Assembly: GCA_016765265.1 (NCBI GenBank)
Contig: JAESQG010000566.1
Location: 1-34,528, forward strand
Direction: 5' to 3'
Source: Pseudomonadales bacterium
GTDB taxonomy: Bacteria > Pseudomonadota > Gammaproteobacteria > Pseudomonadales > DC-out160
DNA: 34,528 bases
The position numbers and the translations under genes were made by a program. The number at the start of each line of letters is the position of its first letter. The first letter of the stretch is position 1. Below, piece by piece: positions 1-21,785 of this stretch. The notes beneath the pieces are model-generated. The model was given only the letters and a program-made list of their open reading frames with translations. It searched no databases and was not told the origin of the DNA.

Positions 1-1
1 A

Positions 2-382
2 GGCTCAAATGCCGTGGTCGTCAAAGGTGTCGAAGCTGGTGCCACTGTGGTGGGGGTGCCGGGCCGGGTTGTTTCACCCAAAAAAACAACGAGCAGTGAA
101 GAACAGCAACGGGCGGAAACGGCTAAAAAGCTTGGGTTTGATGCCTACGGAGCCACGAGTGATGCCCCGGACCCCGTGGCTAATGCCATTAACAGTCTAC
201 TGGATCACGTGCATGTTATGGATGGCAAAATGGCCTCCATGTGCGAGGCAATCAAACGGCTTGATGTAGAATTTAACGATGAAAAACTCCCGAACCTGGA
301 GAATTGCAGCATCAACCCCAGTGATGCCCCGCCGCAGGCTTCTTCCTCGTCAACCGGTGAAAATCAGGAAACTGAACGCTGA
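2..382 (+). CDS. cysE: serine O-acetyltransferase, C-terminal part (5' end lies off the window)
   Basis: The frame is open from the window edge. Hexapeptide-repeat-like GSNAVVVKGVEAGATVVGVPGRVV resembles the CysE C-terminus, followed by a long low-complexity tail. It lies directly upstream of iscR, a gene order known in pseudomonad-like gammaproteobacteria. Confidence 0.5.
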   Translation, partial: GSNAVVVKGVEAGATVVGVPGRVVSPKKTTSSEEQQRAETAKKLGFDAYGATSDAPDPVANAINSLLDHVHVMDGKMASMCEAIKRLDVEFNDEKLPNLENCSINPSDAPPQASSSSTGENQETER

Positions 383-487
383 ATTTGGTCGGTGCCAGAG
401 ACGGCTAATCACGAGCAAAGTAACCGTAGGCTGAATGAAATCAAGGTGTGCAGCCCATTTTTAGGCTGGAATGATGGTATTGCAACT

Positions 488-546
488 ATTACTTGACTAA
501 ACTTGTCGGATATAGATAATAGTACTTGACTAAATTTGTCGGATAT
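488..546 (+). promoter_or_regulatory. two tandem IscR type-1 operator-like sites within a 33-bp tandem duplication (490-522 and 523-555)
   Basis: TACTTGACTAAACTTGTCGGATAT (490-513) and TACTTGACTAAATTTGTCGGATAT (523-546) match about 21 of 24 positions of the IscR type-1 consensus as I recall it (ATASYYGACTRWWWYAGTCRRSTAT). The two 33-bp units differ only at position 502 (c) versus 535 (t). They lie upstream of iscR. Confidence 0.6.
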
Positions 547-801
547 AGATAATAGCAGATCAAATTGATCGGGTATTAGGGTGCGCAATTATTTTTCACC
601 CTACATTTTTCACCCTAAATAGATCAACAGGGAGAGCCTGGGAGAGACTGCTTGGGATTACATAGAATCCGGGTGGGTTTGACCAGAAAACGTAGCTTCG
701 GTAGGCTTCCGTTTAATTCCCGCGCTTTTAGTAAGCTTTAAGCGTTGATTGGTGGGCGGAGAGAGATCCGCCCCAACGTATGTAACCACTGAGGTGAAAT
801 T

Positions 802-1293
802 ATGAGATTGACGACCAAAGGCCGCTATGCCGTCACTGCAATGCTTGATCTGGCATTAAATGCTCAGGAACGGCCGATTACTCTGGCAGACATCTCCCAG
901 CGCCAGGGAATTTCTCTTTCCTATCTTGAGCAATTGTTTTCGCGCTTGCGCAAGCAAGGACTGGTGTCGAGCGCACGTGGCCCAGGGGGCGGATACCGCC
1001 TCAGTCGCGCTGCGAATGACATTAACATCGCTCAGATAATCGAAGCGGTTGACGAAAAAGTGTCAGTAACTCGTTGCGGCGGCAAGGGTGATTGTCAAAA
1101 TGGCGAATCTTGTTTAACCCATAAATTATGGTGCTCGTTAAGCGACCAGATTCACGGGTTTTTAGACAGCATTTCACTCGGAAGTCTGGTTGAAGAGGAA
1201 TATGTAAAAGTTGTCGCCGAGCGTCAGCTGAATGATACTCAGGAAGCGAATAGCCAGCCTGAAACAACGTTGCAGACCGCGACGAGCATGTAA
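802..1293 (+). CDS. iscR: Fe-S cluster assembly transcriptional regulator IscR (Rrf2 family)
   Basis: [19 protein letters not shown] is an Rrf2 winged-helix N-terminus. The cluster-ligand motif C-x5-C-x5-C-x2-H is present ([18 protein letters not shown]). A GAGGTG Shine-Dalgarno sequence precedes the ATG. Confidence 0.9.
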
Positions 1294-1355
1294 TTTTCGG
1301 GTAGCGAAGCGCACATAGTGCGTGCCGCTAATCAGACCCGAACGGGTGCAAATAC

Positions 1356-2579
1356 GTGACTTCATTCGACCACATATATCTCGACAACAATGCATCCACG
1401 CCGATAGATGAGCGTGTTTTAGAGACCATGCTGCCGTACCTGCGAGGGCAATATGGAAATCCTTCCAGTGTGTATCAGCTTGGGCGCATGGCACGGGCTG
1501 CCATCGACGTTGCGCGAGAACAAGTTGCCACATTGGTTAACGCACACCCCTCGCAAGTGGTATTTACCAGCGGGGGTACTGAGGCTAATAATTTAGCATT
1601 GAAAGGTGCCGCGGGAAGATTGCTCCCAGGCAGTCTGGCAATCAGTGCCGTTGAACATGGATCAGTACGTGCTCCGGCGCAGGCTTTACGAAAACAAGGC
1701 TGGGTACTGAGTGAAGTTGGCGTTGATACCCAAGGGCGCCTCGATATGATGCAACTCAATGAGGTGATTTCCAGTCATCACATGAGTACCGCCAGCACTG
1801 GCGTACCCGGTAAGAGCATGTCTGGCAAGAAAAAGCCTGGCAAGATCGTAGCGGTAATGTTGGCTAACAATGAAACCGGCGTCATTCATAATGTCGTTGA
1901 GGTCGCGGAACTGGCCCGAGAAAATGGCGCACTGTTATTTGTCGACGCCGTACAGGCTGCCGGTAAAATACCCGTCGATTTCAAGGTAACAGGCGCACAG
2001 ATGATGAGCTTGTCGGCGCATAAAATGTATGGTCCCAAGGGGGCTGGTGCTCTGATCGTCGACAAATCGACTGATATGGAGCCTTTGCTTCATGGCGGTG
2101 GGCACGAAAAAGGTCGGCGCACGGGAACTGAAAATGTCGCCGCCTTTGTCGGGTTTGGCAAGGCCGCAGAACTGGCAATGGCTGAAATGGAATTGCGACA
2201 CCAGCGTGTTCAGCCATTACGTGAACATCTCGAACAACGTGTGATGGCAGAAATGCCGGAAGTGAAGATATTTGCTCAAGAGGCAGAACGATTGCCCAAC
2301 ACCAGTTTTTTCGCGGTACCGGGTGTGGATGGAGAGACGCTGTTAATGAGTCTCGATCAGGCGGGTTTGGCCGTATCCAGTGGCTCCGCTTGTAGTACCG
2401 GTGAAACAGACCCCAGCCATGTGTTAATGGCGATGGGCGTGGATAAAGCACTGGCGCGAGGAGCCATTCGCGTAAGTTTGGGAAAAGATTCACAACGCAA
2501 TGAAATAGATCGTTTTGTGGATTGTCTTAAACAGCAGGTACAGGCATTACAACGCTTTGCTGCCGTTGCGTACGCGTAG
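1356..2579 (+). CDS. cysteine desulfurase, NifS/IscS-like class V aminotransferase (GTG start)
   Basis: PLP-lysine motif SAHKMYGPKGAGAL and catalytic cysteine loop SSGSACSTG are present, with an N-terminal YLDNNASTP motif. It carries a Ser/Lys/Gly-rich insert (SSHHMSTASTGVPGKSMSGKKKPGK). Confidence 0.85.
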   Translation: MTSFDHIYLDNNASTPIDERVLETMLPYLRGQYGNPSSVYQLGRMARAAIDVAREQVATLVNAHPSQVVFTSGGTEANNLALKGAAGRLLPGSLAISAVEHGSVRAPAQALRKQGWVLSEVGVDTQGRLDMMQLNEVISSHHMSTASTGVPGKSMSGKKKPGKIVAVMLANNETGVIHNVVEVAELARENGALLFVDAVQAAGKIPVDFKVTGAQMMSLSAHKMYGPKGAGALIVDKSTDMEPLLHGGGHEKGRRTGTENVAAFVGFGKAAELAMAEMELRHQRVQPLREHLEQRVMAEMPEVKIFAQEAERLPNTSFFAVPGVDGETLLMSLDQAGLAVSSGSACSTGETDPSHVLMAMGVDKALARGAIRVSLGKDSQRNEIDRFVDCLKQQVQALQRFAAVAYA

Positions 2580-2812
2580 GTTAGTGTTTGCGGCTGTAGG
2601 GCATCAATCGCGTATATGCCGTTTATAAGCTGTATTAATAGAGAGTTGTTAATAAGTTTTATAGCGCTTTGACAGTAATTATGAAACATAAGTTTTGATT
2701 CGAGCTAATTCTGGGCATTAGGTTTCATAACGAAAGCTTCAGCTAATAAGGGTTATGCAAGATTGTTTTTGAAATTGTGTATTGAAATTGTTTTAGAGAA
2801 AGGTAACAACAA

Positions 2813-3094
2813 ATGACAATCAGTAATGAACGCCCCATCTACATGGATTATGCGGCAACAACGCCAATGGATCCCCGCGTCGCGGAAAAAATGATGCAGT
2901 TTTTGACCCCGGACGGCGAGTACGGCAATCCGGCTTCGCGTTCGCATTCCTATGGCTGGAATGCAGAATCGGCTGTTGAAGAGGCACGCAAGCACGTTGC
3001 CAGTCTGGTGAATGCCAATCCCAAGGAAATTATCTGGACCTCGGGTGCGACGGAGTCTGACAATCTTGCTATCAAGGGTGTGGCGCATTTCTAT
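2813..3094 (+). pseudogene. iscS: iscS N-terminal fragment (first 94 codons only), truncated at the compositional breakpoint
   Basis: [24 protein letters not shown]...[19 protein letters not shown] is near-collinear with IscS residues 1 to about 94. After codon 94 the ORF reads [15 protein letters not shown] with no IscS similarity, in AT-rich DNA. The PLP lysine and catalytic cysteine regions are absent from the window. Confidence 0.8.
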
Positions 3095-3201
3095 AACTCT
3101 TTCGTGAGATATTTTTCTAGTGATAAAAATATTCACAAACCTTTGACTATCACTTTGACTAAATCTATTCGTATTCATAGCTACTCCAATCTATTCTTAA
3201 A

Positions 3202-4029
3202 TTATAAAACACAAGAAACGGCAGGTCTATACATTTCAAATTCTTCTTCTGTCCAAGAAGAATCTTTCCCTTTTAAGAACGCCATAACTTTATTTTGAGC
3301 CGCTTCACCATAAAAATTTCTAGCAAATCTTGGAATTTTTGAATCTCCATTATTTTTATTATCTCTAAACTTTTTAACTTGATTTGATAAATATTTTAGC
3401 GAAGTCGATAACAAAATCCCCGGACTACCATTAACTCTTTCGCAAGGTTTGGCTTCACCAATTTGCTGAAAACAAAATAGTTTAGTATAAAATTTTAAAT
3501 GTCTTGGGTGCACTTCTACAAGAAAGTCCGTTTGCTTCATATTGTGAAAAGCATGGATGAAAATAAAATGAAACATTCTCAACAAAATAGTCTTTGATGT
3601 TCTATATTCCGGTGCTATTGCTAGACGAGTAATCTCCGCTAATCGACGATTCATTTTTCTTAATGAAAATAATTCCTCATTAAAAATTTGATCACATGGT
3701 AGCCCGTCACCAGCTTCAAAATTTAAAGTTACAGTGCCAACGGCTTTTCCTTCTTTGGTTTCTACCAATAATGTAAAAACGTTTTTACCACCATCAAAAC
3801 TATTTACACAAACTTTATCTTCATTATGAATATATCCTGATTCGTTGTACACTTTGTAACCCAATTCATAGGCCTTTCGTCTAGAATCAATGTCCGTAGC
3901 GACAATAAAATTAAAATCTTCTTCATCATTTAAGTCAACTTTTAGCACAGGTTTTTTAGCAGTAGCGCTAATTATTTTTATGACTTGTGAAACAGCTGAA
4001 ATTCTTCTTTTTTTATTTGAAGCAATCAT
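3202..4029 (-). CDS. FeeM-type long-chain N-acyl amino acid synthase (NAS paralog A)
   Basis: GNAT-like motifs shared with the two other paralogs: [57 protein letters not shown]. The start is set at ATG 4029 because AGGAG lies 7 nt upstream. The ORF-track ATG at 4071 overlaps the predicted -12 promoter element. Confidence 0.7.
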
Positions 4030-4065
4030 TTTATTTCTCCTGTGATAATAAACATATTGAGTATA

Positions 4066-4082
4066 AAGCATTTAGTATGCCG
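4066..4082 (-). promoter_or_regulatory. sigma-54 (-24/-12) promoter candidate for NAS A
   Basis: The minus strand reads CGGCAT-ACTAA-ATGCTT. GG is at 4081/4080 and GC at 4069/4068, exactly 10 nt apart. The element lies about 40 nt upstream of ATG 4029, and a sigma-54 activator gene is divergent 150 bp away. Confidence 0.6.
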
Positions 4083-4223
4083 AATATTCACTATTTCATA
4101 AATACAGTATTTTCAATGGGTTAGAATATTACAGAGAAAAGATGGATAATTATTTTGACTTCAGTCGTTTAATTATTACTAATAATATCTCTATATTTTC
4201 TCTATTGATTATAGGCAATTATA

Positions 4224-6602
4224 ATGGCTTCAAAAAATAAAACGTATCATCCATTGATTGCCGCTTTTATTGAAAAGCTACATTGGTGGGACACCTTAGA
4301 AAAAATAAAAAAAAAGCTAGACACAGATGTATATAATATTTTCAAGCTACATGAAGATCTTCACAAGACACCTCGTGAAAATATAGAGCAATTAGCAGAG
4401 AAATTCAAAAAGGCCATTCCACTCTTTAACAATTTTCTTAAAAAAAAATGTGACCCAGACCTTCAGTTTTTATCGCTACTCTATTGGTTTGAGGACTGCA
4501 TGAAAGTTGGGACATTTATAGATGCAGATTTCGTAAAAAATCATTTAGAAAAAATTCTTAATAAAAATACTCCTGATGAATTGCAAAGTATTTTCTATGG
4601 ACATACTGGAGTTTATTATCGGAAAAAAGGAAATGCCTCTAAAGGAAATGAATATTTATTAAAATGTGTTCAATGCCTGAAACCAGATAATCCAAGATTC
4701 ATTCCCGTTTTAATTAATTATGGAAATATCACTAGCTATTTTGGTACGTATCCAAAAATTAAAAATGACATTGAGCTATATTTAAAAGATACAGACAAAG
4801 ATTTTAAACATTGGGGTGATCTATTACTATTTTTTTATTCTATTGAAATGGGTCATTTAAAACAAGCATGGGATGCCTTAAAAAATGTTCCAGAAAATGC
4901 ACCTGGAGTGCTATTTTATTATCATAAATTCAAAATTCATTCGTTTGCCATCGCTTTAAATAAAATGATTCAAAATTGGAATATCACTGATTTTTCAAAA
5001 GTTGAAAAACAGGAAATTGATGAATTCATTCGCGACAGGTATAATCCAGGGAGTTTCGATCGAGGGTATAATATAAAGATTGAAATATTAGATAATATCT
5101 ATTCAGGTAATAGCGATGAAGTAATTAAATTGACTCAAGAGGATAAATTAAGAAACAGAGATCATTGGGAATCAAGTTGGTTTTATTGCTCTCAAATTAG
5201 AATTGAACTCATGGCGGGCAATATTGAATCAGCCGAAATATTATTAAAAAATCTCATTTCAATTGGATATGAATTTATATGGAACGACTGGTTTATGACA
5301 CGAATTGAGCTAGCCAAAAAAAATATCGATGCTGCAAAATATTATTTTCAGAAATTATTAAAATCAGTACAAAAACATAATGCTGAAGATCGCTTTAACT
5401 TTGAGGTCAAAATAGCCCATGAAATAAAGGCAACCGATTTAATTCTATTATCAGACAATAAGAATTTAAAAATTAAAAAGCCCTCAAAGACCAAAATAAA
5501 TTTAGATATTGACAGAATGCCGGCAATCATTGGAATAAGCAAACAGGTAATTAAATTAAAAGAATCAATATCAAAAGTTGCCCCGCATGACATCAATGTT
5601 TTAATTCTAGGAGAGACAGGTACAGGTAAAGAGGTAGTCGCAAAATCACTGCACAATTTAGGCCCAAGAAAAAAAGAACCATACATTGCAATCAACTGTG
5701 CCGCCATTTCAGAAACATTACTTGAATCTGAATTATTTGGCCATCAGAAAGGTGCTTTTACGGGGGCAACAGAATACCATAAAGGTGTTTTTGAACAAGC
5801 GGGTAAGGGTACCGTTTTTTTGGATGAAATTGGTGAGATCAGCTCCAACATTCAAAGTGCTTTATTAAGAGTTTTAGAAACTAAAGATATTAAGCCGATC
5901 GGATCATCTAAATCTTTAAAAATTAATTGTCGTATCATCGCTGCAACTAATGCCAATCTAGAGTTGAAAGTAAAAAATAACGAATTTCGAATGGATCTTC
6001 TGCATCGCCTTAACAGAGTAGTCGTACATACAAATCCACTAAGAAAAAAAATCGAAGACATCCCCCACTTAAGCCAATATTTCTTAAATCAAAATCCGAA
6101 CTTCACAAAAGAAGCGAATCTAACCTTTGAGGCTATTGAAGCTTTAAAAAAATACCCGTGGCCAGGTAATGCTAGAGAACTTAAAAATGAAATGGAAAAC
6201 CTTCGGATTTTCAATTATGAGACATCCCTTTATGATCTTCAAGATTTAGATCCAAAATTTCATGGCCGAGCGGAATCCACTGAAAAAGCAGAAGCCCTAT
6301 CCCTTTCAAGTCTGCAAAGCTCCGAAAATAAACACGCGAAACCAACGGAGATAATTGATAGAGAACAAATCTTGGCAACTGAAGTTTTGTCAAACAATAA
6401 AATTTTCTTTCGAAGAATCGAAAAAATCAAAAAACTTTTTGATATTCATAACATATTAACACGAGCAGAATTAATAAAAATCATGGGAGTTTCTCACTTG
6501 ACAGTAACAAAAGATTTGAAGCTATTAATTGAACAAGACTATATTAAAAAAGTCATGCCGAGTAAATCTCCACGTTCACATTATTTTGAAAAACTACCTT
6601 AG
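4224..6602 (+). CDS. sigma-54-dependent transcriptional activator (bEBP 1) with a helical-repeat N-terminal domain and a winged-helix C-terminus
   Basis: Walker A GETGTGKE (about 5610-5633), GAFTGA (5751-5768), Walker B VFLDEIGE, and ESELFGH are present. There is no receiver, GAF or PAS signature in the roughly 430-aa N-terminus. The C-terminus LTRAELIKIMGVSHLTVTKDLKLLIEQDYIKKVMPSKSPRSHYF looks like a wHTH rather than a Fis-type HTH. Confidence 0.85.
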   Translation: MASKNKTYHPLIAAFIEKLHWWDTLEKIKKKLDTDVYNIFKLHEDLHKTPRENIEQLAEKFKKAIPLFNNFLKKKCDPDLQFLSLLYWFEDCMKVGTFIDADFVKNHLEKILNKNTPDELQSIFYGHTGVYYRKKGNASKGNEYLLKCVQCLKPDNPRFIPVLINYGNITSYFGTYPKIKNDIELYLKDTDKDFKHWGDLLLFFYSIEMGHLKQAWDALKNVPENAPGVLFYYHKFKIHSFAIALNKMIQNWNITDFSKVEKQEIDEFIRDRYNPGSFDRGYNIKIEILDNIYSGNSDEVIKLTQEDKLRNRDHWESSWFYCSQIRIELMAGNIESAEILLKNLISIGYEFIWNDWFMTRIELAKKNIDAAKYYFQKLLKSVQKHNAEDRFNFEVKIAHEIKATDLILLSDNKNLKIKKPSKTKINLDIDRMPAIIGISKQVIKLKESISKVAPHDINVLILGETGTGKEVVAKSLHNLGPRKKEPYIAINCAAISETLLESELFGHQKGAFTGATEYHKGVFEQAGKGTVFLDEIGEISSNIQSALLRVLETKDIKPIGSSKSLKINCRIIAATNANLELKVKNNEFRMDLLHRLNRVVVHTNPLRKKIEDIPHLSQYFLNQNPNFTKEANLTFEAIEALKKYPWPGNARELKNEMENLRIFNYETSLYDLQDLDPKFHGRAESTEKAEALSLSSLQSSENKHAKPTEIIDREQILATEVLSNNKIFFRRIEKIKKLFDIHNILTRAELIKIMGVSHLTVTKDLKLLIEQDYIKKVMPSKSPRSHYFEKLP

Positions 6603-6756
6603 TCCTCAACATTAACTTTTTTCAAATTAAGTATCTATATGTAAAACCGCTACAACTCATTCTGTTGTAATATTGTTTCCATACAACATATATATAGAAA
6701 CACCAAATTAGAAGACTAAACTTCTTTGAAAAGAATTCAATTTGAGAATATCTACC

Positions 6757-9700
6757 ATGCATATCTTTAATACTAAATTTTTTATAGTAATTTCGGCACA
6801 AATATTTTTACTTTTCATATCTATTCATTCTGAAGATTGGCCAATGTGGAAAGGTACCTCCGGACGCGGTGGAGTAAACAATGAGACATTACCCAGTAAA
6901 ATGAATTTGCTATGGACTCGTCAATTTCCAAAATCAAAACCAGCATGGGCTAATAACAAAAGCCAAGCAAAACTTCAGTTTGATGTATCCTTTCAACCAG
7001 TTGTTATGGGTAAAAGTATATTCGTACCTTCAAATGTTAATGATAGTGTAAGTGCATATGATACCGATAGCGGTAAGCAAAAATGGATTTTTTATTCTGA
7101 TGGCCCTGTAAGATTTGCACCCGTGGCCAATGATAATAAAGTTTATTTTGTATCGGATGACGGTTACTTGTATTGCCTCAATGCAGAATCAGGAAAACTA
7201 ATCTGGAAATATAATGGTGGACCTGAAAATAGGAAAATCCTTGGTCGTGATCGATTAATTTCTATCTGGCCAGCTCGTGGAGCACCAGTGCTAAAAAATA
7301 AAAAAATATTTTTTGCCGCCAGCATTTTCCCCTTTATGGGAACTTTCATTCATTGTGTGGATGCAAATTCAGGCAAAATGATTTGGAGAGATACAGGCAA
7401 CGGACCTAAATATTTTACGCAACCTCATGGTGCTGGATCTTTTGCTGGTCTTTCTCCTCAGGGATACCTTGCTGCAGGTGATAAATATTTAATCGTACCC
7501 GGAGGAAAATCTTTACCGGCTGTATATGACATTGAAACGGGGAAATTCTTATACTATTATTTGAACAGTAAGAAAGGCGGTTACAGTGTTCAAGCAGGTA
7601 AAAACTTTTATTTTACCGGTGGTTATGCCAATCAAATTAACAAAACAGAAAAAGGCTTTTCTATCATCAATGGTATATACGCCACTTACGGAAACACCTT
7701 AATTTCAGACAAGGCCATGTATCTTTTACATAATAGTATAATTACGGCTTACCGATTCAAGCCAGAATTTGAAATGAAGGTATATAAAAAAAATAGAAAA
7801 AAAGCTTATCTTACCATGCCAGTTTTGGGCGAATTCACAATTCCTTCGCCAAAAAGTGCTGTCAGGATCAAAGCCGGGAATCAAATTATTCTATATGAGC
7901 GTTACAAAAAACATCTTTACGCTGTTAAGCTACCAAATGAAGAAACACTATTAAAAGCAAAAGCCGGGGAATCTGTAAAACAAAACTTACCCACTATTTG
8001 GACTATCCCGACAGGAAAAAGCCCATGGTCTGTTATTGCTGCAGATAAAAAAGTTTTTGTGGTTACACACGAAGGACTATTATCTTGTTATGGTGCAAGC
8101 ACACAAGAGGTCCAAAAACATAACATTGCCTTAACTCCATTACCAGACACTTCAAACTCGGTTGCTAAATCATTGTTAGAAGTTTTAAAAGAATTGAAAA
8201 TTAAAGACGGCTATTGTGTTTTAGCAGGCTTAGGAAATGATAAATTAGCTGAAACGCTAATTAACAAAACAAACCTTTCTATAATTGCTGTCGATTCAGA
8301 TAAATCAAAAATAAATTCATTAAGACATTCAACTGATCAAGCTGGCTTTTATGGCAATAGAATGTCAGTACATGAAGGCGATCCCCTTTCATATCCACTC
8401 CCACCCTATTTCGCAAACATAATAATTATAACAAATTTAAGCAAACGTTTTTTATATAGTAAATCTAACTTAAAAACTTTATTTAATTCACTACGTCCTT
8501 ATGGTGGCACAGCTTTCTTTAAAGTATCTCCATCAGATATTGATAAAGTTAAAGCTCTATCTACAAAAGCAGGTCTTATTAATGCTGAAATAAAAGCTTC
8601 AAATGGATGGATGCTCTTAATTCGTAAGGGCGCACTTCCTGATTCTGCAGAATGGTCCCACCAGTATGCCGATTCATCAAATAGTATATTTGGCAAAGAT
8701 AAACTTGTCAAACTACCCCTAGGATTATTATGGTTTGGCGGTCCTCCAAATACAAATGTTCTACCAAGACATGGTCATGGTCCATCCCCTCAAGTGGCAG
8801 GCGGCAGAGTTATTATAGAAGGTCAGAATATGTTAAGGGCTGTTGATGCTTACACAGGCAGGTTACTTTGGGAACTTAAGTTAAAAAATCTAGGATATTA
8901 TTATCGACATACGGGCCATCATCCTGGTGCTAATGAAATTGGAGGAAATTACGTATCATTACAAGACACTATATATGTTGCTTATGGGAAAGATCTTTTA
9001 TTTTTAGAAGCAGCTACAGGCAATTTGTTAAAAAAAATAAATTACAAAGAAAATGATAGCGACAAAGAATCTAAAACATGGGGTCATATTTCTGTTCACA
9101 AAAATTATTTAATTACAACAACCTCACCAATTACATTTAAAATACAAAAAGATAAAACAGCTATAATAAATAAAAATGCAAAGTATTCTTCTGGAAGTGA
9201 ACAAATAATAGTACTTAATCGCAAGACGGGAAAAATACTCTGGAAACGAAAAGCCAAATTCAATTTTAGGCACAATGCCATATGCAGTGGCGATGGTGTC
9301 TTATTTTGCATTGACTCTTTCTCAAAAAGTAAATTTAATTATTTAAGAAACCAAGAAGAGAAAATCGGAAAACTATTAGCACTTGATATCAAAACTGGGA
9401 AAGAAATTTGGTCCAGTAATGAAAATATAACAGGAACCTTTTTAAATTATTCTGATAAACACAAAGTCCTTCTCCAGGCCGGTAGCTCCAACCGAGACAG
9501 GGCCAGAGATGAGACAAAAACAGGCATGATAGTTTATCAAGCTAAAGATGGAAAAGTAGTCTGGCAAAATTTAAAAATAAAATACGGAGGCCCATTAATT
9601 ATCCGACACAAAGAAATCATTACCAATGGTGGTGGTGGCACAGGAATTGATTTACTTTCAGGCAAAGCCACAAGTTTTAAGTGGAAACGAAACTACGGAT

Positions 9701-10446
9701 GCAACACCGCTATTAGTTCAGAACACCTACTGACCTTTCGATCAGGGGCAGCAGGTTTTTATGATTTAACTAATAGAGGCGGAACAGGAAACTTCGGTGG
9801 TTTTAAATCCAGTTGTACATCAAATCTTATTCCAGCTGATGGAATACTAAATGCTCCCGATTATACCAGATCTTGTTCATGTGCTTATCAGCTCACTGTC
9901 TCCTGTGCTTTGGTCCATATGCCTGATGTAGAGTACTGGACATTTAAAGCTGATGCTACTCCTGGAAAATGGGGATTCAATATTGCTGCATTAGGAGATA
10001 GGAAAGTCCCCAATGGTTCTTTGTGGCGAAAATTTGACATTTTAAAAAACAGAAAATATATACGATCAACTTCTGGCAAATTAACACCGTTCAGAGTTCA
10101 TTCAGGCTACGTTAAAGGAGAAAAGTTTAAATGGGTTGCTTCCTCTGGAGTAAAAGGTTTAACTGATTTAAACATCAATGTTAAGGGAGCTACCAAAGGT
10201 ACCGTTAGGCTAATTTTCATGGAACCAGACAAACTCAAAATAGGAGATAGAATCTTTGATATATCATTGCAGGGAAAAGAGTTAATTAAAGGGCTTGATA
10301 TAATCAAAGAATCTGGAGGACAAAATCATGTCCTGATCAAAGAATTTAAAGATATCGAATTAAACAATTCATTAAAAATTATATTTAAAGCATCCACAAA
10401 GAACCCACCTATTCTCAGCGGAATAGAAATTATCAAAACAAATTAG
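6757..10446 (+). CDS. secreted PQQ-like beta-propeller repeat protein with a central Rossmann/methyltransferase-like insert and a C-terminal malectin-like domain
   Basis: The N-terminus is hydrophobic (FFIVISAQIFLLFISIHS). BamB/PQQ-like repeats recur (SGKQKWIF, DGYLYCLNAESGKLIWKY, DANSGKMIW, DAYTGRLLWE, NRKTGKILWK, DIKTGKEIW). The C-terminus IFDISLQGKELIKGLDIIKESGG resembles malectin domains. The ORF track starts at TTG 6742; ATG 6757 is preferred. Confidence 0.6.
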   Translation: MHIFNTKFFIVISAQIFLLFISIHSEDWPMWKGTSGRGGVNNETLPSKMNLLWTRQFPKSKPAWANNKSQAKLQFDVSFQPVVMGKSIFVPSNVNDSVSAYDTDSGKQKWIFYSDGPVRFAPVANDNKVYFVSDDGYLYCLNAESGKLIWKYNGGPENRKILGRDRLISIWPARGAPVLKNKKIFFAASIFPFMGTFIHCVDANSGKMIWRDTGNGPKYFTQPHGAGSFAGLSPQGYLAAGDKYLIVPGGKSLPAVYDIETGKFLYYYLNSKKGGYSVQAGKNFYFTGGYANQINKTEKGFSIINGIYATYGNTLISDKAMYLLHNSIITAYRFKPEFEMKVYKKNRKKAYLTMPVLGEFTIPSPKSAVRIKAGNQIILYERYKKHLYAVKLPNEETLLKAKAGESVKQNLPTIWTIPTGKSPWSVIAADKKVFVVTHEGLLSCYGASTQEVQKHNIALTPLPDTSNSVAKSLLEVLKELKIKDGYCVLAGLGNDKLAETLINKTNLSIIAVDSDKSKINSLRHSTDQAGFYGNRMSVHEGDPLSYPLPPYFANIIIITNLSKRFLYSKSNLKTLFNSLRPYGGTAFFKVSPSDIDKVKALSTKAGLINAEIKASNGWMLLIRKGALPDSAEWSHQYADSSNSIFGKDKLVKLPLGLLWFGGPPNTNVLPRHGHGPSPQVAGGRVIIEGQNMLRAVDAYTGRLLWELKLKNLGYYYRHTGHHPGANEIGGNYVSLQDTIYVAYGKDLLFLEAATGNLLKKINYKENDSDKESKTWGHISVHKNYLITTTSPITFKIQKDKTAIINKNAKYSSGSEQIIVLNRKTGKILWKRKAKFNFRHNAICSGDGVLFCIDSFSKSKFNYLRNQEEKIGKLLALDIKTGKEIWSSNENITGTFLNYSDKHKVLLQAGSSNRDRARDETKTGMIVYQAKDGKVVWQNLKIKYGGPLIIRHKEIITNGGGGTGIDLLSGKATSFKWKRNYGCNTAISSEHLLTFRSGAAGFYDLTNRGGTGNFGGFKSSCTSNLIPADGILNAPDYTRSCSCAYQLTVSCALVHMPDVEYWTFKADATPGKWGFNIAALGDRKVPNGSLWRKFDILKNRKYIRSTSGKLTPFRVHSGYVKGEKFKWVASSGVKGLTDLNINVKGATKGTVRLIFMEPDKLKIGDRIFDISLQGKELIKGLDIIKESGGQNHVLIKEFKDIELNNSLKIIFKASTKNPPILSGIEIIKTN

Positions 10447-10478
10447 GCAACAGTCGTAGGTTGGGCTGCAGACTATTT

Positions 10479-11315
10479 TCAATCGCCAGAATCGATTAAA
10501 CCTACCGTGTCAATTCCCAGTAGTTGATTATCTAGCCACTGCATTACACTTGGCCACAATTTCTGTGTCCAATCGTTTTGAGGATTATAAAAAAATCCAT
10601 GGCCAGAATTGGGGCTAGGTATAAAAGTGACTGGTCTCTCATTTTTCATTAATGCGTTAGCAAGAATTAAGGATTGATCATAAGGAACCGTTTCATCAAA
10701 AGGATCGTGCACAATATACATAGGTGAAGAATTTTTATCAACATGCAATGCTGGAGAAGCTTGGACATATACTTCTTCAATTTCTTCAATGGTACCACCT
10801 AAGAAATGAGCTCTTTTATTTTTTGTTTTTTCATAATTATTTTCTAGATAAACAAAATCATGAACTCCATGAACATCAACCACACAATTAACTTTAGCAG
10901 AGACCCCATCATGCTCTTGGCCAAATACACCTAGGCAAGCAACTAGATGCCCTCCGGCAGAACTGCCGATGGCACCAATCTTATCAACACTGATTTTAAA
11001 GCGATCTGCATTTTTACGAAACCAAACAACAGCTGACTGACAATCGATTAAAGCAGCAGGAAACACAGCCACTTGGGATAGTCGATAGCTAATTGTACAA
11101 GCAACATAACCGTGTAAAGCAAGACGATGAGCATGCCATAAAAATTGATTTCGATCGCCAGCATTCCAGCCCCCGCCATGCACTAAGATGATACCGGCGC
11201 CATTTTGTTTTTTTTCACTAGGTAGGAATACATCTGCAGTAAGTTCTGTTTCGCCATAAATGGCAAAGACCTCGGAAAGATCGGGGTCAGGAAACTCTTT
11301 TTCGTAATATGTCAT
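10479..11315 (-). CDS. alpha/beta hydrolase (esterase/lipase-like)
   Basis: Oxyanion motif VHGGGW and nucleophile elbow GSSAGG are present, with a late GHGF histidine region. Confidence 0.75.
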   Translation of the reverse strand: MTYYEKEFPDPDLSEVFAIYGETELTADVFLPSEKKQNGAGIILVHGGGWNAGDRNQFLWHAHRLALHGYVACTISYRLSQVAVFPAALIDCQSAVVWFRKNADRFKISVDKIGAIGSSAGGHLVACLGVFGQEHDGVSAKVNCVVDVHGVHDFVYLENNYEKTKNKRAHFLGGTIEEIEEVYVQASPALHVDKNSSPMYIVHDPFDETVPYDQSLILANALMKNERPVTFIPSPNSGHGFFYNPQNDWTQKLWPSVMQWLDNQLLGIDTVGLIDSGD

Positions 11316-11351
11316 TTATAACTTTCTTCAGTAATACAATGAAAAATAAAC

Positions 11352-11367
11352 ACAAAGCATGCTTTGT
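11352..11367. promoter_or_regulatory. perfect 16-bp palindrome in a divergent promoter region
   Basis: ACAAAGCATGCTTTGT is its own reverse complement. It lies between the divergent esterase gene (start 11315) and the metallophosphoesterase gene (start 11445). Confidence 0.3.
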
Positions 11368-11444
11368 CTCTACAAAAATATATTGATAGATGATTCTCTC
11401 AAATATAATATGATTTCCAATAAATAACTTAAAGAAAAACGGCA

Positions 11445-12311
11445 ATGACAAAGTTCATCTATATTTCAGATACTCATTTTGGTGCCAATCCTATGAATTA
11501 TCATCAACAGGAAGGTTATCCAGAAAAGCTTCCAGAAATTATTTTAAAATTAAATGAATTCATCAAAAACAGAGACGATATAGATTTTGTTCTTCATGGT
11601 GGGGATATGATTGATAGTGTTTCTGAACAAACCATTTCAATGGCAAGCAAGTATTTTAAATTTGATGTTCCTATTTACCTTTGTCTTGGCAATCATGATT
11701 TAACCGAATTGAATTCGTTGGATCTTTGGCTCAAAATTGCTCCTCAATATTTTAACGATACAAATAAACCTATCTTCACTATTACAACAAAAGATTGCCT
11801 CATCCATGTCATCCCTAATCACTGGGAGGAAATCCCTTATTACTGGAGTGAAACTCAAGAGGCCTATTTATCGGAAGAACAAATTAATAATCTTTCACAC
11901 GAACTAAACAAATCAACCGATTTTCCTCATATCGTTTTAACACATAGTCCCATTTTTGGCTTACCCACTGAACAAACAGGACAAGAAGAAATATACCACT
12001 CCCCAAATGAAAATTTCAGGAAGACCTTAACTTCTCTAGCACAGAATCACAAGACTATCAAATGTATCCTTGGTGGTCACAACCATTTGAATATGAATTT
12101 AAAACATGAGAATGTTCAGTATGTTACAGCTAGTTCTTTTTCAGAAGCACCCTTTGACTTCAAACTTTTTGAAGTTTCAAAAAACTCAATCACAATGGAA
12201 ACAATAAACCTAGCTGACTCACTTGATTTTAATATTGAATACAACTCAGAAAAATCGTATGTTCAAGGTCGACCAATTGACCGAAAGTTCGCAATAAACT
12301 TTGATTTATGA
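11445..12311 (+). CDS. metallophosphoesterase (calcineurin-like)
   Basis: Ordered motifs are present: SDTHFG, GGDMID, GNHD, LTHSP, GGHNH. Confidence 0.8.
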   Translation: MTKFIYISDTHFGANPMNYHQQEGYPEKLPEIILKLNEFIKNRDDIDFVLHGGDMIDSVSEQTISMASKYFKFDVPIYLCLGNHDLTELNSLDLWLKIAPQYFNDTNKPIFTITTKDCLIHVIPNHWEEIPYYWSETQEAYLSEEQINNLSHELNKSTDFPHIVLTHSPIFGLPTEQTGQEEIYHSPNENFRKTLTSLAQNHKTIKCILGGHNHLNMNLKHENVQYVTASSFSEAPFDFKLFEVSKNSITMETINLADSLDFNIEYNSEKSYVQGRPIDRKFAINFDL

Positions 12312-13391
12312 ATTACCATAAATATGTTTCTTTTGGTCTGTATGATTTAACTCTACTCTGTTTTTCGAATCCATATTAATCGTACCAATAGCACTCATAA
12401 CAGTATTAGATGTTCCTCCATCTTTAGCACCAACATATACTAAATGATACTTCTCATCAATTAAAATTGAACTAGGAGATGCGAGTTCTTCAGAATCATT
12501 ATCATCCATTGAACCTCTAGCTAAAACATTTTTACTTTGGTGTGTAAGCGTAACACCATCATCGGCTAAATATATTTCATAAAGTTCAACAAAACGAGCC
12601 ATGCCTCCACTAGCTCTATTTCCAACTCCGCAGATTGCAGCATAACCGCCATCATCTAAGACTCGGATTGAATTCGGATCAAGCTCATGCCAAATAATCA
12701 TCCGATCTTCTTCAACTGATTGACCTTCAATAGGTTCTAATACATGAAGCCTTTTCCAGTTAATCGCATCATCAGAACCCCAAAGAGCTGAATAATAATC
12801 ATTCCCACCCCCATGAAGCGAATAACCAATATACTTATTTTCAATTCCAGAAAAAGGATTCTTACTCCAACGGAAATATCCGGTATGACCATCACCTGGA
12901 TCTTCATCCGGATTATATTTTAATATAACAGAATCCTCGTCGCCATTAATTCTAGAAAAACTAATACCATCATCTGAAGTAGCTAATAAAGTTGCCTGAC
13001 TTGGACCAATACCATTTTTGTGATAAGATAAAAATACTTTTCCATCAACTACATTGGCATGTGGTGTTTCCGTATGGCCATCTCCTTGTACATTATCAAA
13101 ATAAATCGGATTCGATAATGGCTTTATTGCAATGTGATCAAACGCACCTTCCCCTAAAACATCATCATAAGACTTCCAACTTTTCGCTTCAGATGGCACC
13201 CCATTACAAACATATAGCCAAATACCACCGTCTTTACTATTATGATCCGTTGAAAAATACATTGCATAATCAAACGGAAAGGTCTCAATGTTTTTCATGT
13301 CAATTAGTGTTGTATAATAAGGTCCTGGTGCCGGCATATCATCAGGGCGAAATATAATACTACCCACTTTTGAAAAGGTGTTATTACTCAT
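12306..13391 (-). CDS. beta-propeller glycosidase-like protein with Asp-box-like motifs; no signal peptide
   Basis: Two BNR/Asp-box-like motifs are present (TSDDGISFSR and GSDDAINWKR). The composition is beta-strand rich. Its stop overlaps the convergent metallophosphoesterase stop (TTATGA). It is probably co-transcribed with the upstream sulfatase. Family assignment is uncertain. Confidence 0.35.
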   Translation of the reverse strand: MSNNTFSKVGSIIFRPDDMPAPGPYYTTLIDMKNIETFPFDYAMYFSTDHNSKDGGIWLYVCNGVPSEAKSWKSYDDVLGEGAFDHIAIKPLSNPIYFDNVQGDGHTETPHANVVDGKVFLSYHKNGIGPSQATLLATSDDGISFSRINGDEDSVILKYNPDEDPGDGHTGYFRWSKNPFSGIENKYIGYSLHGGGNDYYSALWGSDDAINWKRLHVLEPIEGQSVEEDRMIIWHELDPNSIRVLDDGGYAAICGVGNRASGGMARFVELYEIYLADDGVTLTHQSKNVLARGSMDDNDSEELASPSSILIDEKYHLVYVGAKDGGTSNTVMSAIGTINMDSKNRVELNHTDQKKHIYGNS

Positions 13392-13421
13392 TTTATTCTT
13401 CTTTCTAAAATATTTGTCAAT

Positions 13422-15041
13422 CTATTTAACAATAAACTCAGCACTTGTCTCTTCGCTCTCCGCAAAACCAATTCGAATAGATTTAGTTCTAATTCGATAA
13501 CTACCTTTTTCTAACATTAAAGGTTCATGATACAATTGCCATTTAATATTTTCTCCATTTTCAAACGTGTAGGCAATTGAGGCTCCCTGAGTCATGCAAA
13601 CTAATTGAACTCGAGTTGGTGAAGAAAACTCTCCTCCCATTGGTGTCAATTCAGACTCTAACTTGTTTTTATCTAGCGGGAAAAATTTCACGACACTAGT
13701 TTGTGGTTGCTTACCATCAGGATACCAATTTCTTACCATTTCTTCTTCAGTTATTTTTCCTAAATCTCCAATATCAAACATCCATTGATCAAGAGCTTTA
13801 CGCAATCTTTTTATTTCAATTTTGTATTTAGAATCTTTTGCTAAATTATTGACTTCATGGGGATCTTCTACAATATCATATAATTCTTCTGAAGGTTTTT
13901 TTTCAAACATTAATTTCTGCACATCATTCAGCTCATCACTAAAATACAAACGATGCATCTCCTGAACTATGGGATGACGATTACAATAAGGTGTAAAAGG
14001 CAAATAAGGAGAATGAAGATCATAATGTCTCATATATTTAAATTTTTTATCTCGAACAGCTCTCACCATATCATAACTTTCATCGTGCCTATCCCGATGA
14101 GCAAAAATATATTCTCGGGCGTCCTCTTTTTCGTTTCCTAAGAACGCTTGGCCTTGCATATACTGAGGGATCTCTAGTCCTGCCAAGGACATCATCGTTG
14201 GTCCAAGATCAACTGAACTAATCAAGTCCTCATTTATTGAATCTGGCTTAACGTTCTCAGGATATCGAATGATCATAGGTATATGAATTCCAGAATCATA
14301 AGGCCAACGTTTACCGCGAGGCATTGGACCATGATCACTCCAATGTACTACGATGGTATTTTCAGCCAAGCCATCTTCGTCCAATTCTTTTAAAAGATTG
14401 CCTAATTGTTGATCCGCCCATTCAATGTTAGCATACATTTGAGTCATAGACTCTCTAACTTTTTTAGTATCAGGAAAATAAGGTGGCAAGACCATATCAT
14501 CAGGATTAAAATTATTTTCACACCATTTATTCTCTGGCCACATGCCACTTTCATGCGTTAACATCGGATTAAATACTGCGAAAAAAGGCTGTTCTGTATT
14601 CGGACGATTTCTCCAATGAGCCTCTTTTCCTAATTCATCCCAAGCCGTAACGGGTGATTCAAATTGATAATCAGTCTTATGATTATTAGTACAATAATAT
14701 CCGCTTGCTCTAAAATATTCTGTAAAACATTTTACATAATGAGGCAACTTAGCATCATAGGGCGTGGGAAGCTCTCTACAGTTATCATTATTATGTGTCG
14801 TTCGCATATGATGAGTACCAATAGAAGTCGGATACATCCCTGTGATTACCGCTGACCTTGACGGAGAACAAACACCCGATGGCGCGAATGCATTGGGCCA
14901 AATACAGCCATCTTTTGCAAGCTGATCAACTATTGGAGTACGGGCAACCTGATCACCATAACATCCATAAAATGGATTCGAATCTTCAAAAGATACCCAT
15001 AAGATATTCGGCCTGTTCTTAGCATTACTATTCTTACTCAT
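13422..15041 (-). CDS. sulfatase (formylglycine type) with a C-terminal beta-sandwich domain; no signal peptide
   Basis: PNILWVSFEDSNP followed by the CSPSRSAVITG C-x-P-x-R motif, then WSDHGP. The start is set at ATG 15041 (MSKNS); the ORF-track GTG at 15074 adds 11 residues. Confidence 0.85.
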   Translation of the reverse strand: MSKNSNAKNRPNILWVSFEDSNPFYGCYGDQVARTPIVDQLAKDGCIWPNAFAPSGVCSPSRSAVITGMYPTSIGTHHMRTTHNNDNCRELPTPYDAKLPHYVKCFTEYFRASGYYCTNNHKTDYQFESPVTAWDELGKEAHWRNRPNTEQPFFAVFNPMLTHESGMWPENKWCENNFNPDDMVLPPYFPDTKKVRESMTQMYANIEWADQQLGNLLKELDEDGLAENTIVVHWSDHGPMPRGKRWPYDSGIHIPMIIRYPENVKPDSINEDLISSVDLGPTMMSLAGLEIPQYMQGQAFLGNEKEDAREYIFAHRDRHDESYDMVRAVRDKKFKYMRHYDLHSPYLPFTPYCNRHPIVQEMHRLYFSDELNDVQKLMFEKKPSEELYDIVEDPHEVNNLAKDSKYKIEIKRLRKALDQWMFDIGDLGKITEEEMVRNWYPDGKQPQTSVVKFFPLDKNKLESELTPMGGEFSSPTRVQLVCMTQGASIAYTFENGENIKWQLYHEPLMLEKGSYRIRTKSIRIGFAESEETSAEFIVK

Positions 15042-15088
15042 TTTATTATTTCCAATTAAAATAATTGATATCACATGCTAGTAGTCAT

Positions 15089-15105
15089 ATGGTAGCACAA
15101 GCTTC
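15089..15105 (+). promoter_or_regulatory. 17-nt motif ATGGTAGCACAAGCTTC, copy 1 (divergent sulfatase intergenic region)
   Basis: It is identical to 30305-30321. A near-identical inverted copy lies at 15164-15180. Confidence 0.35.
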
Positions 15106-15163
15106 CAGCATGTAACTAAAATGCTGATTATAGAATATAATATGAAAAAATTCACAACAAGCT

Positions 15164-15180
15164 AGAAGCTTGTACTACAT
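15164..15180 (-). promoter_or_regulatory. inverted near-copy of the sulfatase-associated motif
   Basis: The minus strand reads ATGTAGTACAAGCTTCT. GTAGTACAAGCTTC matches GTAGCACAAGCTTC at 13 of 14 positions. It is oriented toward the minus-strand sulfatase. Confidence 0.3.
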
Positions 15181-15287
15181 AAATATTTCAATTTAAAATT
15201 TTATTATCAAGATTGAGACATTCATTGCAATCTATGAAATATCACTATAACCATTTATACTTTTGATCACAATAATGAGGAACAATC

Positions 15288-16655
15288 ATGTCGGAGAAAC
15301 CAAACATAATTTTAATCAATTGCGATGACCTAGGTTATGGTGACCTAGCCTGTTATGGATCAAAAGTTAATAAGACTCCAGCACTTGATAAGCTGGCAGC
15401 CGAAGGAATTAAATTCACTGATTTTTATATGACATCACCTGTCTGCTCACCTTCTAGAGGTTCCATGCTAACAGGCTGCTATCCTCCAAGAATAGGTTTT
15501 GGATCTTTTGTGAATGGCGGCTGGGTATTATTTCCAGGTGACGCATTAGGATTACATGAAGATGAAATTACGATTGCAAAATTATTAAAACAAGCAGACT
15601 ATCAAACTAAGATAGTTGGCAAATGGCACTGCGGAGACCAAAAAGAATTTCTACCAATACGACATGGGTTTGATAGTTATTATGGCATACCCTATAGTAA
15701 TGACATGGGACGCCAAAATGCCGATGATAAACAACCACCCCTACCTCTTTTAAAAGATGAAGAAGTCATCCAAGAACAACCAGATCAAAGAGGAATAACC
15801 GAGCGATACACCGAGGAATGCGTTTCTTTTATTCGAGATAATAAAGACAAACCATTCTTTTTATACCTAGCCCATATGTATGTTCATTTACCCATTTATG
15901 TACCAAAACAATTTCTCGATAAAGCTGAAAATGGACCTTATGGTGCTGCCGTTGAACACATTGATTGGGTTACTGCTGTTCTAATGGATGAACTTAAAAG
16001 GCAAGGCATAGACGATAATACATTAATCGTCTTTACCAGCGACAATGGATCTCGCGCTCAAGGGGAAGGTGGCAGCAATGCTCCACTAAGAGGACGTAAA
16101 ACCCAAACCTGGGAAGGTGGCCAAAGATTACCATGCATTATGCGTTGGCCAAGAAAAATAAAATCAGGTCTCGTCAATAAAGAAATCACCTCATCTATGG
16201 ATTTCTATAAAACATTCGCTGCCCTGGCAGGTGTAGAAATACCAACAGATAGAATTATTGATGGTAAAGATATTCGACCAATGCTTTTTAATGAGCCAGA
16301 TGCCAAAAGTCAATACGATGCTTTTTTTTATTATAAATGCAATGATTTAGAAGCCGTTCGCTCTGGAAAATGGAAGCTACATGTGTCAAGAGACAAAGTA
16401 AAGGTTGAAGAATTATACAATTTAGAGTCTGACATAGGCGAACAAACAAACCTCTTTAATCAAGAACCTGAAATAGTCAAAGACTTAATGATAAAAATTA
16501 AAGCATGTCAAAAAGATATCGGTGATGAAGCCGCTGGTATAAAAGGGGAGAATATACGCCCTATCGGAAAAGTTGACAGCCCTGATACGCTAACTCACTA
16601 CGATCCCGAGCATCCATACATTATTGCATTATACGATTTAAAAGAACGTGGTTAG
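15288..16655 (+). CDS. sulfatase (formylglycine type); no signal peptide
   Basis: PNIILINCDDLGYGD, the CSPSRGSMLTG motif, TSDNG and GGQRLP are present. A GAGGA Shine-Dalgarno sequence precedes the ATG. Confidence 0.9.
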   Translation: MSEKPNIILINCDDLGYGDLACYGSKVNKTPALDKLAAEGIKFTDFYMTSPVCSPSRGSMLTGCYPPRIGFGSFVNGGWVLFPGDALGLHEDEITIAKLLKQADYQTKIVGKWHCGDQKEFLPIRHGFDSYYGIPYSNDMGRQNADDKQPPLPLLKDEEVIQEQPDQRGITERYTEECVSFIRDNKDKPFFLYLAHMYVHLPIYVPKQFLDKAENGPYGAAVEHIDWVTAVLMDELKRQGIDDNTLIVFTSDNGSRAQGEGGSNAPLRGRKTQTWEGGQRLPCIMRWPRKIKSGLVNKEITSSMDFYKTFAALAGVEIPTDRIIDGKDIRPMLFNEPDAKSQYDAFFYYKCNDLEAVRSGKWKLHVSRDKVKVEELYNLESDIGEQTNLFNQEPEIVKDLMIKIKACQKDIGDEAAGIKGENIRPIGKVDSPDTLTHYDPEHPYIIALYDLKERG

Positions 16656-16720
16656 GACAATTCACTTAATTAAATATATTCGCTTCATATGTCAAGCCTA
16701 TGTGCATATGTTAATTCCAC

Positions 16721-17896
16721 CTAAGCAAGAACAAGTTCATGTTCAACACCAAAGTAACACATTTCATCTACACTCATTGGTCTACTTGATTCACGAATAA
16801 AATCACCAATATAGGCTTCCTGCATTTCTAAAACAAAATAGTTGTACAATGTTTTTCTCCCAACTCTTGCTGTTGTATTTCTACCAGCAATTATTTTTTC
16901 TTCAGCTTTACCAAGATCTAGTTTTAATAAGACGGCAGGAGCTCCTTGAACCCTTCCACAAGGCTTAGAGTCACCAATTACTTCAAAACATAAAAGTCTT
17001 TTGTAATAGCCAACATGTCGAGGGTTAACCTCAATCAACATATGATCAGATGCAAGGTTTTTATATGCATGTATATAAACAAAGTTCATAAGATTTTTAA
17101 TTAGGTTTCGAGAGTTCCTATAGCTTTCATCAACAACCAATCGAGTTATCTCCACCATTTTTTTATTTTGATTATTCAACTCACTTAATTCGTCTTTAAA
17201 TATTTTCTGACAAGGAATATCGCCATGAACATTTGACACTACTGAAATAGAAGCCACAGAATTTCCATTTTCGTCTTCTGCTAAAAAAGTAATTGTATCC
17301 GGCCTTGCATCGTCACTATTAACAAATAATTTATTTCGATCTTGAGATGAATAGCCACACTGACCATATACTTTTTGAGATAATTGATAAACTTTCTCTC
17401 TATCAACTCGATTAGAAGCCACACTAATTCTAAAGTTGATCTTTTCAGATATCTCCCATTTTGGAGAACCAATTTCTACTTCTTCTTTTAATACCCATAG
17501 TGCTTGAGAAGTTGCTGAACGTTTTTTCTCTTTGATTTGATGCTTTTTCTCAATCTCATCTCGCACTTCAATTTTTTCACTCTTCAATACCTGTTTTAAT
17601 TTTCCGCCTGAGAGAAAAATATCCTCTCTATCCTTTGCACCCAATTGAATTAAAAAATCATGAACAATACATTTATCAGATATAGAAGTTAACACTAATG
17701 AAAGACTAACGACTAAAGCTCCCAAATTCCAATAAGGGTTGTACATACTCATGAGTAGAAAAATAGAAATTAAAAACCCACTGATTAGTCTTCCATATCT
17801 ATCCACACTCCAGTGACTAAAACTTTTAGACAAAGCTGCTTTAAAACCATTTAAATGATTGTTCAGTTTTGGGGTCTGAATCGCTGAAATACTCAT
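16721..17896 (-). CDS. membrane-anchored FeeM-type N-acyl amino acid synthase (NAS paralog B): DUF2892/YgaP-like two-helix N-terminus plus NAS domain
   Basis: The N-terminus has VDRYGRLISGFL (the DRxxRxxxG signature), two hydrophobic helices, and SDKCIVHDFLIQLG. The C-terminal part carries NAS motifs INFRISVASNRVDREKVYQLSQKVY, VEITRLVVDESYR and EVNPRHVGYYKRLLCFEVIG. A GGGAGA Shine-Dalgarno sequence precedes the ATG. Confidence 0.7.
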   Translation of the reverse strand: MSISAIQTPKLNNHLNGFKAALSKSFSHWSVDRYGRLISGFLISIFLLMSMYNPYWNLGALVVSLSLVLTSISDKCIVHDFLIQLGAKDREDIFLSGGKLKQVLKSEKIEVRDEIEKKHQIKEKKRSATSQALWVLKEEVEIGSPKWEISEKINFRISVASNRVDREKVYQLSQKVYGQCGYSSQDRNKLFVNSDDARPDTITFLAEDENGNSVASISVVSNVHGDIPCQKIFKDELSELNNQNKKMVEITRLVVDESYRNSRNLIKNLMNFVYIHAYKNLASDHMLIEVNPRHVGYYKRLLCFEVIGDSKPCGRVQGAPAVLLKLDLGKAEEKIIAGRNTTARVGRKTLYNYFVLEMQEAYIGDFIRESSRPMSVDEMCYFGVEHELVLA

Positions 17897-17935
17897 TGTC
17901 TTTCTCCCATTAAATATCTGAATTAAATCTTCTAA

Positions 17936-17951
17936 TGCAAATCACAAGCCA
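17936..17951 (-). promoter_or_regulatory. sigma-54 (-24/-12) promoter candidate for NAS B
   Basis: The minus strand reads TGGCTT-GTGAT-TTGCA, close to the consensus TGGCAC-N5-TTGCW. GG is at 17950/17949 and GC at 17938/17937, 10 nt apart. The element is about 40 nt upstream of ATG 17896. Confidence 0.7.
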
Positions 17952-18030
17952 AATTTCAATAAATCGTAAGTTCCTAATTTTAAAAGAGTTATGATAAATG
18001 CTCAACATTTAGCACTGGAAATAATTGACT

Positions 18031-18066
18031 TATATAGATCAATTAAAACTTAAATTGATCTATATA
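18031..18066. promoter_or_regulatory. perfect 14-bp inverted repeat; candidate enhancer (UAS) for bEBP 2
   Basis: TATATAGATCAATT (18031-18044), an 8-nt spacer, then AATTGATCTATATA (18053-18066). Its centre is about 100 nt upstream of the -24 element of the NAS B promoter and about 75 nt upstream of the bEBP 2 ATG. Confidence 0.45.
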
Positions 18067-18124
18067 GATTATTACAATTCCTAATATACAATAAGTAATA
18101 AAAATTAAACCAAGGAAAGTAGCG

Positions 18125-20422: not shown

Positions 20423-20430
20423 AGTGATGT

Positions 20431-21615: not shown

Positions 21616-21670
21616 AATAGTAAGAATCCAAACTAAATAATAATTTTGATTCTAAAATGAAACAAAAATA

Positions 21671-21782: not shown

Positions 21783-21785
21783 AAG

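Follow-up and report, generated by a model that had tools for sequence, protein, structure and literature searches.

The window analyzed here, a whole deposited contig of 34,528 nucleotides, is in our judgment very probably (about 93%) a non-biological chimera of two phyla, being neither a genomic island nor a case of iscS loss. By comparison with independently assembled sequences, 3,094 bp of a gammaproteobacterial locus (cysE'-iscR-nifS-like-iscS') would have been fused, by a blunt join, to 31,434 bp of the AT-rich chromosome of a second organism. We refer to the source of the left segment (positions 1-3094), an Ectothiorhodospiraceae/Gammaproteobacteria MAG population, as parent A and to that of the right segment (positions 3095-34528), a MAG population deposited as 'Planctomycetota bacterium', as parent B; by their NCBI names the two belong to different phyla. 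The original prediction, made from the sequence of the window alone, had named a chimeric assembly or an artificial join as the simplest explanation, and this was borne out in that each half is ~100% identical to a different organism which continues natively past the break.

Composition changes abruptly within iscS

The GC content of 500-nt windows was 0.48-0.53 up to position 2500 and 0.27-0.40 from position 3001 to the end of the window, and in 100-nt windows it fell from 0.50-0.58 (2825-3099) to 0.28-0.36 (3050 onward). Overall, the GC content is 49.5% in 1-3094 and 34.1% in 3095-34528. Third codon positions gave the same picture, the GC3 of the ORF at 2813-3298 being 0.59 in 2813-3094 vs 0.26 in 3095-3298. 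A two-segment likelihood fit to positions 1-8000 placed the change point after base 3086, only 8 nt off the true join, which BLASTN alignment to independent contigs put exactly between 3094 and 3095. The proposal of an abrupt compositional breakpoint in iscS, with G+C-rich DNA up to 3094 and A+T-rich DNA for all of the remainder, was thus confirmed by the GC windows and GC3 and, through BLASTN, to the base. Note that a GC dip (0.30-0.33) at about 2600-2800 is separate from the break and represents the native intergenic DNA that separates the nifS-like gene from iscS in the GC-rich organism.

Sliding-window GC and tetranucleotide profiles and separate BLAST and taxonomic assignment of 1-3094 and 3095-34528 had been proposed as checks. 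The profiles of the two halves differ, each matching its own parent, and the separate assignments gave two different organisms. The tetranucleotide correlation (r) was 0.99 between the right part and parent-B flanks and 0.78 between the left part and parent-A flanks, vs 0.39 between the left and right parts.

The left segment matches a gammaproteobacterium with an intact isc locus

Positions 1-3094 are 99.92-100% identical to 10 independent contigs (L084-L093), and every parent-A alignment that reaches the break stops at 3094. The exact IscR protein of the window is found on 17 public contigs, 10 of which were those aligned. One of these is NVUB02000215.1 of the NCBI assembly GCA_002401775.2, whose accession is within the range assigned to the MAGs of Tully et al. 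2018. Six parent-A contigs carry on past 3094 with CATAAGAAAGG / CATAAGAAAGGCAAGCAC, their IscS protein reading ...FY-HKKGKHIITSKTEH and being an intact protein of 408 residues. The intact iscS is followed by iscU, iscA, hscB, hscA, fdx, and iscX in contigs L084 and L085, and contig L087 extends only to hscA. As read from these assemblies, the isc operon of the real gammaproteobacterium is complete. The parent-A IscS is named 'Ectothiorhodospiraceae bacterium' at NCBI (MBL1278133.1). When the IscS fragment was compared with genome contigs, the best among the at least 600 matches listed had 78% amino-acid identity, which places the left part in the Gammaproteobacteria at that level only.

The window opens within a gene encoding a CysE-like hexapeptide-repeat acetyltransferase (Pfam Hexapep), of which the 3' part is present on the plus strand at 1-382, the remainder having been cut off by the contig end. 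The gene is intact in parent A (270 aa; contig L084, 8769-9581), and the window start corresponds to position 9200 of that contig. It is followed by iscR on the plus strand (802-1293, 163 aa), which scored 213.5 bits against the TIGR02010 IscR model (cut-off 207.55). A repeat search found a tandem 33-nt direct repeat on the plus strand at 478-543, about 260 nt upstream of iscR, the 21-nt core of which, TACTTGACTAAAYTTGTCGGA, occurs twice vs 0 occurrences expected by chance. The repeat belongs to parent A and has no connection with the break; we take it to be a probable pair of IscR autoregulatory operators, by analogy with the E. coli iscR promoter. Between iscR and iscS lies a plus-strand gene (1356-2579) for a class V cysteine desulfurase paralog, for which TIGR03402 NifS was the best model at 421 bits, a score below its cut-off. 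This NifS-like protein has 383 or 401 residues as called in the parent contigs, and the longest ORF has 407.

Some parent-A assemblies end within iscS. In two independent assemblies, Logan SRR5988126 and ENA MEYE16-2 (L086 and L088), the contigs stop 140-170 bp past the equivalent of position 3094. In these communities there seems to be a hotspot of assembly breaks in the conserved part of iscS, and this may have produced a loose end of a parent-A contig close to 3094.

The right segment is collinear with the chromosome of parent B

The right segment was aligned to contigs L081-L083 and L094-L098 and has the character of ordinary parent-B chromosome. Identity is 99.98-100% over 3095-14029 and 21217-34528, and 100% for 21821-34528. 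The end coordinates on parent-B scaffold_2, 322255 to 290822, span 31,433 bp, exactly the span in the window, which indicates that the right part is collinear with parent B with no net indel; for 14030-21216 the scaffold coordinate match is the sole source of this collinearity, the rest of the right part having been aligned directly.

The gene for a FeeM-like N-acyl amino acid synthase on the minus strand at 3202-4071 (275 aa, 3202-4029, or 289 aa as called) lies close to the break. The 275-aa call occurs on three contigs, ENA ERZ23499281 scaffold_2 (469,956 bp), Logan SRR5988120_1045 (71,001 bp), and JGI 3300029925 Ga0315560_103027 (4,076 bp), and all three begin to match the window at exactly 3095, with 99.9-99.98% identity from there on. 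Before the equivalent of that position all three read AATCCTACC. To the left, native parent B carries the rest of a gene encoding a 111-aa protein, an asd/argC-like gene, recJ, a gene for an FHA/SpoIIE protein, and rlmN. The same native arrangement is found in GenBank as the consecutive entries PCJ62253 to PCJ62256, named 'Planctomycetota bacterium'. The 111-residue product is a YgaP-like membrane protein (PCJ62256.1), and its gene is intact in parent B (contig L081, 10852-11187). In the window only the first 28 codons are present, on the minus strand at 3095-3178, the gene being cut by the junction.

In addition to FeeM-like N-acyl amino acid synthases, the right part encodes two large sigma-54 activators, a 1234-aa PQQ-like beta-propeller protein, an esterase, a metallophosphoesterase, KAS/ACP proteins, an amine oxidase, and an ECF sigma factor with a FecR-like partner. 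The tRNA search returned a single tRNA for the entire window, a tRNA-Asn at 21785-21857, far from the break. No mobile-element genes were found in the right part, the content of which is ordinary chromosomal. At least four sulfatase genes lie within the 31 kb of parent B (13422-16655 and 30428-34476), and these are consistent with the PVC-type lifestyle implied by the 'Planctomycetota' label, which is the depositor's. The 34% GC of parent B is low for Planctomycetota.

Two divergent, paralogous gene pairs are present in parent B at 3202-6602 and 16721-20422, each composed of a FeeM-like N-acyl amino acid synthase (minus strand) and a sigma-54 activator (plus strand). The paired activators are of about 770-790 aa and have a long N-terminal region that is not a receiver domain. 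Comparison of one pair with the other gave 38% identity over 486 aa for the activators and 34% over 207 aa for the FeeM-like proteins. A third FeeM domain (27872-30301) is fused to an FAD-linked oxidase and lies downstream of the ECF sigma factor/FecR-like pair (25563-27631). In a search of 5.8 billion proteins the FeeM-like protein of 3202-4071 had two matches besides itself, at no more than 33% identity. These genes may represent a family of modules for lipid signals or N-acyl amino acids that is controlled by sigma-54.

The original prediction had offered as its alternative that the AT-rich DNA is a very large foreign insertion, such that more than 31 kb of parent-B DNA was truly inserted into a gammaproteobacterial iscS gene with the NifS-like paralog compensating. 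We consider this extremely improbable. It would fit the interrupted iscS of the deposited sequence and the presence of a second cysteine desulfurase upstream, and because of private SNPs (given below) the consensus of the window does differ from the other assemblies. However, the supposed insert is plain, collinear parent-B chromosome that carries tRNA-Asn along with genes for sulfatases, KAS/ACP, sigma-54 activators, and sigma factors. At the join it breaks off within a gene of parent B, beyond the right end of the window it continues natively, and neither microhomology nor a direct repeat, integrase, IS, or tRNA target was found. The intact isc locus is found at 99.97% identity in six contigs, and in every parent-A contig the NifS-like gene stands upstream of an intact iscS, and it is thus an ordinary member of that locus rather than a compensating paralog. 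The 3' portion of iscS, which a genuine insertion would have left at the far end of the AT-rich block, was looked for and was absent from the window; beyond the right end the parent-B contigs run on with their own genes.

The join is blunt and lacks homology

Three-way alignment of the window with the two parents gave a blunt join of the genomes between 3094 and 3095 with 0 nt of microhomology. Base 3094 is T in the window vs C in parent B, and base 3095 is A vs C in parent A. Across the break the identity to the wrong parent, in register, is ~25% on both sides, a random level, and no ambiguous or mosaic bases are present at the join. An overlap-based merge as the cause was judged unsupported on these two grounds, the dissimilarity of the parents in register and the clean bases of the join.

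Both junction genes are cut mid-ORF, iscS (plus strand) after codon 94 and the gene for the 111-aa protein (minus strand) after codon 28. Read from 3178 to 3095, the window encodes MNTNRF...ISHERV and then enters antisense iscS; the protein has ...HERV|IEMRHTL... in the window where the native sequence continues |GRILAGV.... The repeat search found no direct or inverted repeats bracketing the break, and no integrase, IS, tRNA, or mobile-element genes were found at the break, where the neighbors are the FeeM-like acyltransferase and a sigma-54 activator. The earlier statement that an IS end, integrase, tRNA, and direct repeat are lacking at the break therefore stands by tRNA, repeat, and profile searches, and a repeat, an IS, or a tRNA was discarded as the cause of the break, none being found there.

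Classical repeat-induced mis-assembly through sequence common to both genomes has, in our estimate, next to no chance of being the origin of the join. The high conservation of iscS speaks for it, as do the nearby ends of contigs L086 and L088, which suggest graph complexity in the gene. The join itself speaks against it: the overlap is 0 nt, the in-register identity is random on both sides, and parent B has no iscS-like sequence at the join. As the parents have no k-mer in common there, it is unlikely that a repeat induced an ordinary de Bruijn mis-join.

Three private single-base differences set the window apart from all other assemblies, one in the parent-A part (2145) and two in the parent-B part (3702 and 9871). 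The difference at 2145 alters the NifS-like protein and that at 9871 alters a 1229-aa protein; exact-protein look-up found neither variant protein on any other contig. The three differences could be consensus errors or minor alleles, and they indicate that the population, sample, or consensus behind the window differs slightly from that of the other assemblies; a real rearrangement in it is conceivable, though improbable.

The iscS reading frame runs by chance into parent-B DNA

Only codons 1-94 of iscS are present, on the plus strand at 2813-3094. The ORF that contains them (2813-3298) encodes 161 aa, of which residues 1-94 (...AIKGVAHFY) are identical to the same residues of the intact 408-aa parent-A IscS (MBL1278133.1), and residues 95-161 differ from the native HKKGKHIITSKTEH. 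A textbook IscS N-terminus up to codon 94 had been predicted, and this was correct. So was a chance continuation of 68 codons devoid of IscS similarity, which comprises 67 sense codons plus the stop codon and arises where the iscS frame runs on into parent-B DNA in antisense (plus strand, 3095-3298). Of all entry points in the parent-B part, 13.9% run for at least 67 codons (six frames, with genuine coding frames counted in), so that the length of the continuation does not discriminate. IscS family models match the fusion ORF only to about residue 113 (profile position ~110 of ~400). The fusion ORF is known from a single contig, in NCBI and nr.

Functional IscS has a full-length class V aminotransferase fold of about 400 aa with PLP-lysine and catalytic cysteine regions. 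The window, with residues 1-94 of 408 only, lacks that full-length fold. A tblastn search over the whole window found no further iscS and no iscU, iscA, hscB, hscA, fdx, or iscX, in agreement with the reported lack of the rest of iscS and of iscU/iscA/hscBA. The mis-join would account for the truncation of iscS, for the 161-aa fusion ORF, and for the absence of iscU/iscA/hscBA.

Both parents occur together and continue natively elsewhere

Both organisms live in one and the same set of subseafloor fluid samples from North Pond. JGI metagenome 3300029925 contains both parents (L083 for parent B and L091 for parent A), as does the TULL18-1 sample series. In the JGI metagenome parent A is present only as a 1.5-kb contig, which suggests low coverage there. 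Every other assembly that crosses a breakpoint has the native continuation, six for parent A and three for parent B. A junction 40-mer had 0 matches in the metagenome contig collection, as did a control 42-mer of parent B alone that is present in Ga0315560_103027.

These assemblies bear on the converse possibility, that a strain of parent B took up at least 3.1 kb of gammaproteobacterial DNA by illegitimate recombination into the gene for the 111-aa protein. We regard this as highly improbable. The left end of the window is the contig end and the other boundary would thus be out of sight, a blunt homology-free join is compatible with illegitimate recombination, and the parent-B part has two private SNPs. 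Nevertheless, the gene is uninterrupted in three assemblies and in the GenBank MAG annotation. Moreover, the parent-A fragment is 99.97% identical to a co-resident organism with no sign of amelioration, begins and ends mid-gene, and is joined to parent B on the one contig recorded with the fusion ORF, and the prior odds strongly favor an artefact in low-biomass, multi-round assembly. More generally, that the junction is real, arising from inter-phylum illegitimate recombination in either direction in one North Pond subpopulation with ~zero divergence from both donors, is very unlikely.

Discussion

Inter-genome chimeric contigs in metagenomes and MAGs are a form of contamination that GUNC or CheckM are meant to flag. 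The window resembles these in that its halves are of different phyla, each matched at ~100% identity by a co-occurring genome with its own native continuation past the break, and in its abrupt composition switch and the genes cut on both sides; its fusion ORF is on record from one contig only. It differs from most de Bruijn chimeras, which cross at a shared repeat or conserved k-mer, in that the join is blunt with no shared base. Chimeras also arise during library preparation, through fragment-to-fragment ligation or PCR-mediated template switching in low-input libraries. Like those, the window as assembled has a blunt, homology-free join of unrelated fragments. As in genomic islands, GC and codon usage change abruptly and a host gene is interrupted. 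In contrast to islands, neither cargo-like content nor an integrase, IS, tRNA, or attachment repeats at the boundary were found, and the 'island' would be the plain chromosome of a co-resident organism at ~100% identity, which is itself cut short at the boundary.

A standard de Bruijn assembler alone does not yield a blunt join without a shared k-mer. We therefore infer the step at which the join was made: a chimeric template or contig joining is more likely than a repeat-induced de Bruijn crossover. In the first of these, two sheared fragments would have been ligated during low-input library construction and the chimeric template later duplicated by PCR, and the assembler would then have followed it where parent-A coverage ended. 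Alternatively, a contig-joining or secondary-assembly step could have made the join. A study of low-biomass fluids used NuGEN Ovation Ultralow libraries with 175-bp inserts and IDBA-UD assembly of each sample followed by permissive Geneious re-assembly of the pooled primary contigs (PMC5739024). If the contig stems from that study, the ultralow-input libraries and two-round assembly would be the setting of the join.

The 34.5-kb chimera and the 161-aa IscS fusion protein sit in NCBI and nr. Taken at face value, the contig would imply loss of an essential Fe-S assembly operon or a giant inter-phylum transfer, and would give a wrong taxonomic or metabolic assignment to a MAG that contains it. 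The finding brings no new biology and is a matter of data quality in the public record: a blunt, homology-free chimera can reach deposited records from low-biomass, multi-round assemblies.
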